A stretch of 4,069 nucleotides of DNA, from positions 1-4,069 of IMG/VR virus record IMGVR_UViG_2548876869_000006. The stretch is one strand, 5' to 3'. Shown piece by piece: positions 1,252 to 1,983 of this stretch (position 1 is its first letter; every line of letters starts with the position of its first letter). A program made the translations under genes and the position numbers. The stretch is from a virus (Duplodnaviria; Heunggongvirae; Uroviricota; Caudoviricetes). The notes beneath the pieces were generated by a model that saw only the letters and a list, made by a program, of their open reading frames with translations, ran no database searches and was not told the DNA's origin.

Positions 1252-1431
1252 ATGAAAAACGCATTGCAGTTTTTGTTTGTTGCGTTCTGGTTGTTCGCAT
1301 CATGTATGCCCATCATCTTCACAGCAAGGTATATGGAAAAAATTGATGTTTTGATATTAATGTTTGGACATATAAATGCCCTTTTTTTAGGGGTGTTCAT
1401 GGCGGTCATGTGCATTGAATACTGGCGGTAA
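1252..1431 (+). CDS. Small hydrophobic membrane micro-protein, ~59 aa, two predicted transmembrane helices, encoded in an AT-rich insert
   Basis: Track ORF 1213..1431 begins at a GTG with no usable SD; the internal ATG 1252 follows AGGGGG (1242..1247). Product MKNALQFLFVAFWLFASCMPIIFTARYMEKIDVLILMFGHINALFLGVFMAVMCIEYWR has two ~20-residue hydrophobic stretches. The preceding 120 nt are about 33% GC by hand count versus roughly 50% elsewhere. Confidence 0.45.
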   Translation: MKNALQFLFVAFWLFASCMPIIFTARYMEKIDVLILMFGHINALFLGVFMAVMCIEYWR

Positions 1432-1485: not shown

Positions 1486-1514
1486 TTTGCGGGGAAATCT
1501 TAGTTAAGTAGAAT
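1486..1514 (+). promoter_or_regulatory. Candidate sigma70 promoter for hok mRNA (-35 TTTGCG/TTGCGG, -10 TAGAAT 1509..1514; predicted start near G1521)
   Basis: Hexamers read directly with 16-17 nt spacing. The predicted 5' end (GGGUGCUUGAGGCU...) resembles my recollection of the plasmid R1 hok mRNA 5' end; that comparison is from memory. Confidence 0.4.
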
Positions 1515-1531
1515 AACTGCGGGTGCTTGAG
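1515..1531 (+). promoter_or_regulatory. hok mRNA 5' element (tac-like) complementary to the 3' fbi-like element at 1896..1913
   Basis: AACTGCGGGTGCTTGAG (1515..1531) pairs with CTCAACGCACCCGCACTT (1896..1913): 15 of 17 positions with one bulge. Long-range 5'-3' pairing is a known hallmark of hok-family mRNAs. Confidence 0.5.
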
Positions 1532-1574
1532 GCTATCTGTCTCAGGCATGAACACCAAAAGGCAGATAGAGAAA

Positions 1575-1640
1575 AGCCCCAGTTAACATTACGCGTCCTG
1601 CAAGACGCTTAACATTAATCTGAGGCCATATCTATGCGAC
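1575..1640 (-). ncRNA. sok: Sok-like antisense RNA (predicted), covering the SD and start codon of the mok-like leader ORF
   Basis: Placed by the minus-strand promoter at 1647..1676 (start near 1640) and by the known antisense architecture of hok/sok loci. The 3' end is not defined; I could not identify a clean terminator on the minus strand. Confidence 0.4.
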
Positions 1641-1693
1641 ACATAGAGATTAGCCTCTTACGGACCGAAAGGTCAAGGAGAAGCAGGCTATGA
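1634..1693 (+). CDS. mok-like leader ORF, 19 codons (MRHIEISLLRTERSRRSRL), stop overlapping the hok start (ATGA)
   Basis: ATG 1634 with GAGG at 1622..1625 (8-nt spacer); TGA 1691..1693 overlaps hok ATG 1690..1692. It sits about 56 nt upstream of hok, where I recall mok starting in R1 hok/sok. Confidence 0.4.
   Translation: MRHIEISLLRTERSRRSRL
1647..1676 (-). promoter_or_regulatory. Candidate sok promoter on the minus strand (-35 TTGACC = complement of 1671..1676; -10 TAATCT = complement of 1647..1652; 18-nt spacer)
   Basis: Hexamers read from the reverse complement. The position inside the mok-like/hok leader and pointing antisense matches the known placement of the sok promoter in hok/sok loci. 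Confidence 0.45.
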
Positions 1694-1845
1694 AGCAGCA
1701 AAAGGCGATGTTAATCGCCCTGATCGTCATCTGTTTAACCGTCATAGTGACGGCACTGGTAACGAGGAAAGACCTCTGCGAGGTACGAATCCGAACCGGC
1801 CAGACGGAGGTCGCTGTCTTCACAGCTTACGAACCTGAGGAGTAA
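1690..1845 (+). CDS. hokD: Hok-family type I toxin, 51 aa (MKQQKAMLIALIVICLTVIVTALVTRKDLCEVRIRTGQTEVAVFTAYEPEE); HokD/RelF-like
   Basis: Hand translation; below the ORF-track size cut-off. Single N-terminal transmembrane helix, conserved Cys and C-terminal tail typical of Hok/Gef. It matches my recollection of E. coli HokD (RelF), and the hok-rem-DUF968 order matches Qin prophage. The paralogue assignment is from memory. Confidence 0.85.
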   Translation: MKQQKAMLIALIVICLTVIVTALVTRKDLCEVRIRTGQTEVAVFTAYEPEE

Positions 1846-1852
1846 GAGACCC

Positions 1853-1874
1853 GGCGAGGGAGAAATCCCTCGCC
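1853..1874 (+). other. Perfect 9-bp stem with GAAA tetraloop (GGCGAGGGA-GAAA-TCCCTCGCC) in the hok 3' UTR
   Basis: Read directly; lies 8 nt after the hok stop and upstream of the fbi-like element and terminator. Plausibly a structural element of the hok mRNA 3' end. Confidence 0.5.
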
Positions 1875-1895
1875 ACCTCTGATGTGGCAGGCATT

Positions 1896-1913
1896 CTCAA
1901 CGCACCCGCACTT
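1896..1913 (+). promoter_or_regulatory. hok mRNA 3' fbi-like element, complementary to the mRNA 5' end (1515..1531)
   Basis: See the 1515..1531 entry; the complementarity is read directly from the sequence. Confidence 0.5.
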
Positions 1914-1945
1914 AACCCGCTTCGGCGGGTTTTTGTTTTTATTTT
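1914..1945 (+). terminator. Rho-independent terminator of the hok transcript
   Basis: Stem AACCCGC (1914..1920), loop TTCG, stem GCGGGTT (1925..1931), followed by TTTTGTTTTTATTTT. Confidence 0.75.
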
Positions 1946-1953
1946 CAACGCAT

Positions 1954-1983
1954 TTGAAGTTCTGGACGGTGCCGGAATAGAAT
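1954..1983 (+). promoter_or_regulatory. Candidate sigma70 promoter upstream of rem-like (-35 TTGAAG 1954..1959, 18-nt spacer, -10 TAGAAT 1978..1983)
   Basis: Hexamers read directly, just downstream of the hok terminator. Sequence-only prediction. Confidence 0.3.

Follow-up and report, generated by a model that had tools for sequence, protein, structure and literature searches.

An apparently complete HokD-class hok/sok-type cassette with a short mok reading frame in a lambdoid prophage of Escherichia coli

The locus spans positions 1486-1945 of the window (the whole 4,069-nt stretch of DNA that was analysed) and, read from its sequence, is a complete hok/sok-type type I toxin-antitoxin cassette of the HokD class, carried by a lambdoid prophage of E. 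coli. Every regulatory element that the original prediction had listed for an intact locus was found where it had been placed, or a few bases away. The prophage setting was recovered as well, the cassette being preceded by DUF7167 and nin-like ORFs and followed by rem, DUF968/HNH (YdfU), RusA and Q; the 59-aa ORF upstream of the cassette has no match in Pfam, PHROG or NCBIfam. Homology between mosaic phage genomes begins at the hok -10 and ends at fbi or at the terminator, and the cassette appears to be an autonomous promoter-to-terminator moron inserted between lambdoid phage genes.

The toxin gene (hok, 1690-1845, plus strand) encodes the 51-aa Hok peptide that had been proposed, which matches Pfam PF01848 (HOK_GEF) with 82.9 bits against a cutoff of 22 and PHROG 251 at 2.8e-33, and which scores below the cutoffs of the NCBIfam Hok models (48.5 vs 73). 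The protein is RefSeq WP_000813254.1, 'HokD', an accession identical to that of K-12 HokD, and RefSeq annotates the gene as hokD. A preprint (10.1101/2025.08.07.668861) lists the HokD peptide among toxic controls that earlier work had characterised. Downstream of hok, the expected 9-bp GAAA-tetraloop hairpin, GGCGAGGGA-GAAA-TCCCTCGCC, is present at 1853-1874 (plus strand), both by direct reading and in the fold; its pairing in relatives is about 98%, and three positions show G-C/A-U exchanges. By analogy with the R1 model, from which its processing role is taken, this hairpin is presumed to stop 3' trimming and to form the 3' end of the truncated mRNA. The intrinsic terminator, AACCCGC-UUCG-GCGGGUU followed by a T tract (1914-1940, plus strand; stem-loop 1914-1931), was also recovered by the scan, and is the only intergenic plus-strand terminator-like site in the window. 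Rfam RF01794 matches 1521-1692 over the full model with 106.7 bits (gathering score 59; E = 2e-24). Note that this 'sok' match is to the sense strand, so that what it models is the leader of hok, and it was rejected as evidence for Sok itself. Sub-threshold matches to rsmX, ceN48 and isrK (26.6 bits; gathering score 50) reflect a likeness to hairpin-plus-terminator architecture and were not accepted as real.

The candidate hok promoter (1486-1514, plus strand), read directly, combines a -10 TAGAAT (1509-1514) that is conserved in relatives with a weak -35 (3/6), either TTTGCG at 1486-1491 or TTGCGG at 1487-1492, that varies between phages; it was not called by a consensus sigma-70 scan. The -10 lies 6 nt upstream of G1521, which is the geometry of the R1 -10 (TATGAT) relative to the R1 +1 (R1 numbering from PMC9841398), and the sequence upstream of it is fully polymorphic among relatives (100% over 1476-1508). 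The putative mRNA 5' end coincides with the tac element, GGGUGCUUGAGG (1521-1532, plus strand), position 1 of the RF01794 model aligning to 1521. There is no polymorphic site in tac among 68 E. coli-clade alleles, and the element has three alternative partners, at 1539-1549, 1574-1580 and 1895-1907. The last of these is fbi, UCUCAACGCACCC (1895-1907, plus strand). A 5'-3' complementarity had been predicted between 1515-1531 and 1896-1913: it stands for 1521-1531, extended to 1532, with 1896-1907, extended to 1895, and it falls for 1515-1520, which lies upstream of the putative +1 and whose partner, 1908-1913, is not conserved. The proposed folding check places the tac/fbi pairing in the MFE structure of 1521-1938, with pair probabilities of 0.97-1.0. 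The MFE of the full-length mRNA is -167.7 kcal/mol (z-score -7.45) and the tac/fbi duplex energy is -19.2 kcal/mol. In the nascent transcript, tac is predicted to be sequestered by 1539-1549 (plus strand), the 3' arm of a metastable 5' hairpin (MFE of 1521-1550, -16.9 kcal/mol).

The anti-SD element of mok, ucb (1574-1580, plus strand), matches the Rfam consensus stem and pairs with the mok Shine-Dalgarno when the full-length RNA is folded, and with tac in one truncated fold. This Shine-Dalgarno, GAGG (1622-1625, plus strand), is invariant in the 47 sequences aligned; its partner is ucb in the full-length MFE structure and, in a truncated fold, dcb (GCCUC, 1653-1657, plus strand), an element placed next to the Sok promoter in PMC9841398. 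In the full-length fold, 1656-1660 (plus 1653-1654) pairs with the region of the hok Shine-Dalgarno, AAGGAG (1675-1680, plus strand), 9 nt before the hok ATG. Among four truncated 3' ends, the RNA ending at 1885 folds into tac/ucb and SDmok/dcb, and the other three give the 5' hairpin; the predicted switch is thus sensitive to the trimming end point. All the alternative pairings of the R1 model (tac/fbi, tac/ucb, ucb/SDmok, SDmok/dcb and the metastable 5' hairpin) could be located in the window and are conserved in the 47 relatives.

The antisense promoter predicted on the minus strand, TTGACC-18-TAATCT, is present at 1647-1676 by direct reading (-35 TTGACC, 1676-1671; 18-nt spacer; -10 TAATCT, 1652-1647), though it scores below the threshold of the sigma-70 scan. 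As neither promoter was called, their assignment rests on homology with R1 and sokW and on conservation. The Sok -10 (1647-1652) is homologous to the sokW -10, TAACCT, inactivated experimentally by others, who mutated it with primers YO-421/422 to obtain a promoter-less construct (PMC8621323). The predicted Sok RNA, of ~69 nt (1572-1640, minus strand), would start 7 nt downstream of the -10 and comprise a 13-nt 5' tail, a long hairpin and UUUU (MFE -29.3 kcal/mol, z-score -5.04), and it is complementary to the mok Shine-Dalgarno and AUG. A putative cis-encoded antisense Sok gene, with its own promoter, hairpin and U tract, overlaps the mok Shine-Dalgarno and start. The mok AUG itself is held in a Sok-target hairpin, UCUAUG-CGACA-CAUAGA (1631-1647, plus strand), in the full-length fold and in 3/4 of the truncated folds. 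Positions 1637-1646 are the most variable stretch of the transcribed unit among E. coli-clade alleles.

The mok leader ORF, MRHIEISLLRTERSRRSRL (1634-1693, plus strand), begins with ATG at 1634 behind the GAGG and, as anticipated, ends in an ATGA, its TGA stop (1691-1693) overlapping the hok ATG at 1690. Overlap of stop and start in AUGA is a classical way of coupling two reading frames. Translation of mok would reach the hok initiation region here, and its 19 codons are atypical, 68-70 being found in most relatives. The offset between the mok and hok starts is 56 nt, as opposed to 57 nt, in frame with hok, in most relatives (56 nt in 15 and 57 nt in 89 of 122 fetched loci). We rejected a description of the relatives' long mok as an out-of-frame overlap, since a 57-nt offset is in frame. 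All three frames of mok relative to hok are found in nature; E. ruysiae and E. whittamii acquired the 19-codon form independently, and the sequence changes behind it in the window are specific to its allele group. The exact allele occurs in 798 of 5426 complete E. coli genomes (about 15%), is carried by strains such as ATCC 25922 and AR_0013, and resides in no fewer than three distinct prophages that occupy different insertion sites; over 551 bp, identity reaches 99% or more in 858 records.

We compared these structures across 47 aligned relatives from Escherichia, Kluyvera, Citrobacter, Photorhabdus and Pantoea. Paired cells amount to 88.6%, compared with 39-45% in slid controls, over which the tested structures are favoured by having been derived from the window sequence. 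Changes on both sides were observed for 44 pairs, and the covariation score was reached by none of 500 shuffles; much of this covariation comes from one clade, Photorhabdus, and thus from few events. The tac/fbi helix is 91.8% paired, with pair 1524-1904 changing from U-A to C-G in 11 sequences, and the metastable 5' hairpin is 97.3% paired (29-51% in slid controls), with pair 1524-1548 changing from U-A to C-G in 12. Position 4 of tac covaries with its partner in fbi and also with that in the metastable hairpin, the three positions reading U/A/A in 33 sequences and C/G/G in 11. The tac/ucb helix (99.7% paired) and the SDmok/dcb helix (100% paired) are invariant, so that their conservation is uninformative by covariation. 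Overall, tac, the anti-SD and fbi are almost invariant, against fully polymorphic flanks. The conservation of the Hok protein among viral loci was discarded as a sign of selection, the argument being circular for loci ranked by Hok identity.

Among known hok loci, hokW-sokW (Sakai prophage 5 / Stx2 phages), shown experimentally to be a type I system with an antitoxic sokW RNA (Takada et al, 2021; PMC8621323), displays 91.5% nucleotide identity over 1521-1907, as measured on an Stx2a phage carrying 5/6 of the published primer/probe sequences searched. The two loci share tac, ucb, the Sok hairpin, the anti-SD, the hok Shine-Dalgarno and fbi, the Sok -10 is at the homologous position, and 46/51 residues of HokW, also 51 aa long, are those of the window Hok, the C-termini reading VDYESEK and TAYEPEE, respectively. 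They differ in mok (70 codons in frame with hokW, compared to 19 codons ending in AUGA), in the Sok promoter (TTGCCT-17-TAACCT in sokW and TTGACC-18-TAATCT here), in the bases following the mok AUG, which form the Sok 5' tail, and in the sequence past fbi, which is unrelated and makes the terminators different. The hokW-sokW locus resides in an Stx2a-converting phage and the present one in a lambdoid prophage. Plasmid-borne R1 hok/sok, compared through an R1-type IncFII allele, has the same element order and common blocks, namely GG(Y)GCUUGAGGCU, AGCCCC, GAGGC, UAGCCUCUUAC, CAAGGAGAAG, GCUUACGAA and a tac-complementary fbi, and 19 mok codons precede the hok start in both, whereas the two loci are about 53% identical in nucleotides overall, mok of R1 runs to 70 codons and the R1 Sok hairpin is shorter, the window having an extra inner stem at 1589-1612. 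HokW and R1 Hok are 44% identical in amino acids (PMC8621323). The Escherichia chromosomal hokC/mokC (gef) loci are alignable in all elements, with 75-79% nucleotide identity over the whole mRNA, but their Sok hairpin is of the short form, their Hok has 50 aa, mokC usually runs to 69 codons in frame with hok, and they lie in the chromosome outside prophages.

The statement that K-12 hokD sits behind relBE without a regulatory region of its own proved correct: K-12 homology starts at 1676, inside the hok Shine-Dalgarno. K-12 hokD (relF, Qin prophage) encodes an identical Hok and shares the 3' UTR, rem and ydfU (99% identity over 1676-1990), whereas promoter, tac, ucb, mok, Sok and dcb are missing and relBE is in place upstream of 1676, with relE upstream. 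The window does not have this relBE-hokD architecture; its toxin is identical and the full upstream region is present. K-12 hokD is a 5'-truncated remnant behind relBE. Intact hok/sok loci of the HokD type are already known, being common and annotated and having an experimentally characterised relative, the 91.5%-identical one; about 55% of complete E. coli genomes hold a locus of this type. Apart from its unusually short mok, the cassette is ordinary.

The original prediction held that the locus could be functional. We consider it probable that the nin-like region of this lambdoid prophage carries, as a moron, a self-contained HokD-class hok/sok cassette that works like the R1 paradigm. In this reading the observed elements, folds and conserved or covarying pairings are completed by what we infer about the transcript ends, processing at the 3' end, how Sok acts, coupling and toxicity. 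The weak promoter (-10 at 1509-1514) would produce a mok-hok mRNA of ~415-420 nt from G1521, tac being held in the 5' hairpin (1523-1549) of the nascent transcript. In the finished transcript, tac (1521-1532) would pair with fbi (1895-1907), ucb (1576-1580) would mask the mok Shine-Dalgarno and 1656-1660 that of hok, and the full-length mRNA would consequently be neither translated nor bound by Sok. Slow 3' trimming to the GAAA hairpin (1853-1874) would strip fbi, upon which tac may switch to ucb, freeing the mok Shine-Dalgarno and presenting the target hairpin (1631-1647). The ~69-nt Sok RNA, transcribed from the opposite strand (about 1640 to 1572), would bind this target and block mok translation, leading to decay of the duplex. 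Once Sok is depleted, the 19-codon mok would be translated, opening the hok Shine-Dalgarno helix, and ribosomes terminating at UGA would restart at the overlapping hok AUG, yielding the 51-aa membrane toxin. By analogy with hokW-sokW, the cassette likely serves to kill or to assist lysis when the prophage is induced, and/or to stabilise the prophage.

A competing explanation, which we regard as unlikely, is that the cassette is structurally intact yet phenotypically silent, being transcribed and regulated, making too little Hok, and hitch-hiking in mosaic lambdoid prophages. The chromosomal hokA, hokB and hokC loci offer a parallel, having been reported, in work cited by the preprint (10.1101/2025.08.07.668861), to give no post-segregational killing and no activation by rifampicin; the hok -35 is weak and variable between phages, and one prophage with the window allele, in AR_0013, has a frameshifted integrase. 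However, the allele also occurs in prophages with intact integrase and excisionase genes, one of them an Stx2a prophage, the regulatory elements are strongly and element-specifically conserved against fully polymorphic flanks, and for hokW-sokW, a close relative, a phenotype could be measured on induction.

Against R1-like working stands the -1 frame of mok, which is in frame with hok in most relatives; this frame could reduce or abolish Hok synthesis. The 19-codon mok might accordingly be an inactivating frameshift, in which a 2-nt deletion after the mok ATG and a 1-nt insertion put mok out of frame and left a disarmed toxin locus, making neither a 70-aa Mok-Hok nor enough Hok. We find this quite improbable. 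It would fit the in-frame mok of 89/122 fetched loci, with the 56-nt offset in only 15, and the confinement of the changes to the window's allele group, but the AUGA overlap is the classical one for coupling, three frames exist in nature with the 19-codon form reached independently in E. ruysiae and E. whittamii, and the remaining locus is free of decay in about 800 genomes. Moreover, ribosomes on R1 mok need to go no further than the hok initiation region, translation of mok past the hok start being dispensable (PMC9841398), and a 19-codon mok takes them that far. Finally, chance resemblance of the 5'-3' complementarity and the other elements around a small ORF has a negligible probability: the tac/fbi duplex energy is only moderately unusual (equalled by 24/5000 shuffles of the 3' UTR) and the scan calls neither promoter, but the Rfam match (E = 2e-24), the mRNA z-score of -7.45 and the pairings conserved and compensated in 47 relatives from five genera refute it.

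Within the favoured, R1-like reading, the 19-codon mok ending in AUGA may tentatively be seen as a distinct, selectively maintained coupling, in which Hok is made solely via termination and restart, without the 70-aa Mok-Hok fusion; we hold this more doubtful than otherwise, and it is suggested by the form having arisen at least twice and by its presence in ~15% of E. coli genomes and in several lambdoid prophages. The hypervariable bases after the mok AUG, in the Sok 5' tail, could be specificity determinants preventing cross-talk between co-resident hok/sok loci. The cassette points the same way as the early-right operon, and the window shows no terminator ahead of it; transcripts reading through from that operon when the prophage is induced could therefore remove Sok, both through titration and through collision at the convergent Sok promoter. 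Why Sok is lost was left without an explanation in the hokW study (PMC8621323).

These results change existing knowledge little, and what is gained is a precise element-by-element map of one common allele. They confirm K-12 hokD as the remnant of a complete cassette that is common in E. coli lambdoid prophages, Stx2a prophages included. Being without the in-frame mok-hok arrangement of hokW, the allele would also offer a natural test of whether mok is needed only to deliver ribosomes to the hok start.

[quoted passage not shown] The toxin ORF (1690-1845, plus strand) encodes the anticipated 51-aa Hok/Gef peptide (Pfam, 82.9 bits), named HokD in RefSeq under a protein accession identical to that of the K-12 gene. 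It is preceded by the leader ORF mok (ATG 1634, TGA 1691-1693, plus strand), 19 codons long, whose stop overlaps the hok ATG to form the predicted ATGA. Downstream, the GAAA hairpin (1853-1874) and the intrinsic terminator (1914-1931 plus T tract) are both present as earlier described. The candidate hok promoter (1486-1514) contains a -10 element, TAGAAT (1509-1514, plus strand), 6 nt ahead of G1521, the inferred transcription start, which reproduces the R1 plasmid geometry (-10 TATGAT and +1 GGCGCUUGAGG, R1 numbering; PMC9841398), but its -35 is weak, and a consensus promoter scan left both promoters, hok and Sok, uncalled. The sole call of that scan in 1300-2100 is a promoter-like TTGAAG-18-TAGAAT at 1954-1983 (plus strand), after the hok terminator and before rem (2062-2313). 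Position 1 of the Rfam model RF01794 aligns to 1521 (106.7 bits, gathering score 59); as the match is on the hok strand, RF01794 models the mRNA leader, not Sok. The antisense promoter TTGACC-18-TAATCT was found on the minus strand as proposed (1676-1647), with its -10 aligned to the one whose mutation Takada et al. used to switch off sokW (PMC8621323). The predicted Sok RNA of ~69 nt (1640 to 1572, minus strand) combines an unpaired 5' tail with a long hairpin and a U tract (folding z -5.04). A below-threshold Rfam match over the hairpin and terminator of the hok 3' UTR (1854-1935, plus strand; 26.6 bits, gathering score 50, E 0.0067) is to isrK, an Hfq-binding sRNA encoded in Salmonella prophages, and probably represents architectural similarity only.

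The hok mRNA folds far more stably than its shuffles (z -7.45). The minimum-energy structure of 1521-1938 contains the pairing of tac, the mRNA 5' end element, with its 3' UTR partner fbi, at pair probabilities of 0.97-1.0; the energy of this duplex alone was matched by 24 of 5000 shuffles. The proposed 5'-3' complementarity stands for 1521-1532 with 1895-1907, and falls for 1515-1520, which lie upstream of the inferred start and have unconserved partners. The full-length fold has tac paired to fbi, the mok SD (1622-1625) masked by ucb (1576-1580) and the hok SD masked by 1656-1660. RNAs truncated at four 3' ends past the GAAA hairpin gave two fold types: one end (1885) produced tac/ucb together with SDmok/dcb (1622-1626 with 1653-1657), and the other three the 5' hairpin of the metastable structure, tac with 1539-1549. 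The regulatory anatomy, as modeled, matches the published R1 scheme (PMC9841398).

We then considered conservation, using 133 related loci fetched from genomes and viral contigs; since the viral loci were picked by Hok identity, Hok conservation among them is circular. On an alignment of 47 diverse loci (Escherichia, Kluyvera, Citrobacter, Photorhabdus, Pantoea), 88.6% of cells are paired in the full-length structure, vs 39-45% with slid partners, the tested structures being derived from the window sequence itself. Forty-four pairs are altered on both sides, with compensatory changes mostly from one clade, and no shuffle reached the observed covariation score. The tac/fbi helix is 91.8% paired, and U1524 changes to C in step with 1904, which it pairs with in fbi, and with 1548, which it pairs with in the metastable hairpin (U/A/A, n=33; C/G/G, n=11). 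The tac/ucb and SDmok/dcb helices are 99.7-100% paired, yet invariant, so that conservation speaks neither for nor against them. The Sok/ucb-dcb hairpin has two forms. The window and hokW carry the long one, with an additional inner stem (ACGCGUC...GACGCU, 1589-1612); the short one, seen in 26 of the 47 sequences (hokC-type, Photorhabdus), is without this inner part (~18-24 alignment columns gapped).

Variation across 68 E. coli-clade alleles depends strongly on the element: polymorphic sites amount to 0% in tac, 12% in the anti-SD, 17% in fbi and 100% upstream of the -10. The most variable transcribed stretch is 1637-1646 (predicted Sok 5' tail; mok codons 2-4), with a mean minor-allele frequency of 0.23 vs 0-0.05 in tac, ucb, anti-SD and fbi; it could be a Sok specificity determinant limiting cross-talk. 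Sequence shared between mosaic phage genomes starts at the -10 and stops at fbi or the terminator, the pattern expected of a self-contained cassette.

The closest characterized relative, hokW-sokW of Sakai prophage 5, is 91.5% identical over 1521-1907. It matches until just past fbi, then diverges fully and lacks the window's terminator hairpin, so in that phage the shared module ends at fbi on its 3' side. hokW-sokW is a type I system whose toxin is made on RecA-dependent prophage induction, and it doubled phage release (PMC8621323). Of 5426 complete E. coli genomes, 2974 have a copy covering at least 80% of 1440-1990; hok-like places per genome number 2 at the median and 9 at most. According to a recent survey, thousands of prophages and phages carry Hok (10.1101/2025.08.07.668861). 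This kind of element, and essentially this locus, is thus already known. Near-identical E. coli hokD also appears in very short contigs labeled Acinetobacter idrijaensis (275 bp) and Xanthomonas pisi (431 bp), and in an 'Actinobacillus phage', which looks like contamination or mislabeling, not true host range.

The one unusual feature of the locus is the length of mok. The mok frame shifts against that of hok from locus to locus: among 122 fetched loci, the offset is 57 nt in 89 (68-70 codons in frame with hok, as in hokW, mokC-type and R1-type IncFII plasmid alleles), so that 'Mok' is Hok with an N-terminal extension, 58 nt (+1) in 9 and 56 nt (-1, 19 codons, as in the window) in 15, while in 9, including truncated K-12-type copies, no ATG aligns with the mok start. 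Compared to the in-frame form, the window allele has lost 2 nt immediately behind the mok ATG and gained 1 nt at 1673. A 44-nt stretch of this allele is matched exactly in 798 of the 5426 genomes, the allele occupies at least three prophages at separate sites (tRNA-Ser, by potC and by ompW, the last an Stx2a prophage), and the 19-codon group occurs independently in E. ruysiae and E. whittamii. The short mok might disarm the locus, a less probable reading. In R1, mok translation is required up to the hok initiation region and not past it, and 19 mok codons precede hok (PMC9841398); by analogy, the short mok would be expected to function through termination and restart at AUGA. The allele is a modest variant.

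K-12 strains match the window only from 1676 on, a point within the hok SD, and relB-relE lie upstream of it there, so the proposal that K-12 hokD sits behind relBE without its own regulatory region was right. Within hok, the hexamer UACGAA (1828-1833; Tyr47 codon 1828-1830) is invariant in 47/47 aligned loci and resembles the tRNA-Arg anticodon-loop sequence recognized by TadA. Editing of A1829, if it occurs, would recode Tyr47 to Cys. Low-level A-to-I editing (6%) was reported for K-12 hokD mRNA, and the cysteine at the corresponding position in HokC, HokD and HokE is said to come from RNA editing (PMC12214031).

The window is a portion of a lambdoid prophage, 100% identical to one adjoining tRNA-Ser in E. 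coli AR_0013 that encodes integrase, exonuclease, dicB, CI/Cro-like regulators, replication genes, RusA, a Q-type antiterminator, holin, lysozyme and terminase. The integrase there is annotated as frameshifted, so that this copy may be unable to excise; elsewhere the same hok allele resides in prophages whose integrase and excisionase genes are intact. Phage genes flank the locus (DUF7167, PHROG families 519 and 660, Rem, DUF968/HNH (YdfU), RusA). Directly 5' of the hok promoter lies an unannotated 59-aa hydrophobic ORF (1252-1431, plus strand; starting MKNALQFLFVAFWLF...), with a GGGGG SD 5 nt upstream, inside a 37% GC stretch (1132-1485). It is intact in 17 of the 19 fetched loci having it, is present in three phage records as 'hypothetical protein' or, oddly, 'hornerin', and had no match in Pfam, PHROG or NCBIfam.

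Overall, the locus is ordinary and of a type described before, and the mechanism best supported for it is the canonical hok/sok cycle. As the cassette and the early-right operon share orientation and no terminator-like site was found upstream of the cassette within the window, Sok could be removed by transcription reading through the cassette when the prophage is induced; this would agree with the disappearance of sokW, so far unexplained, after mitomycin C (PMC8621323).
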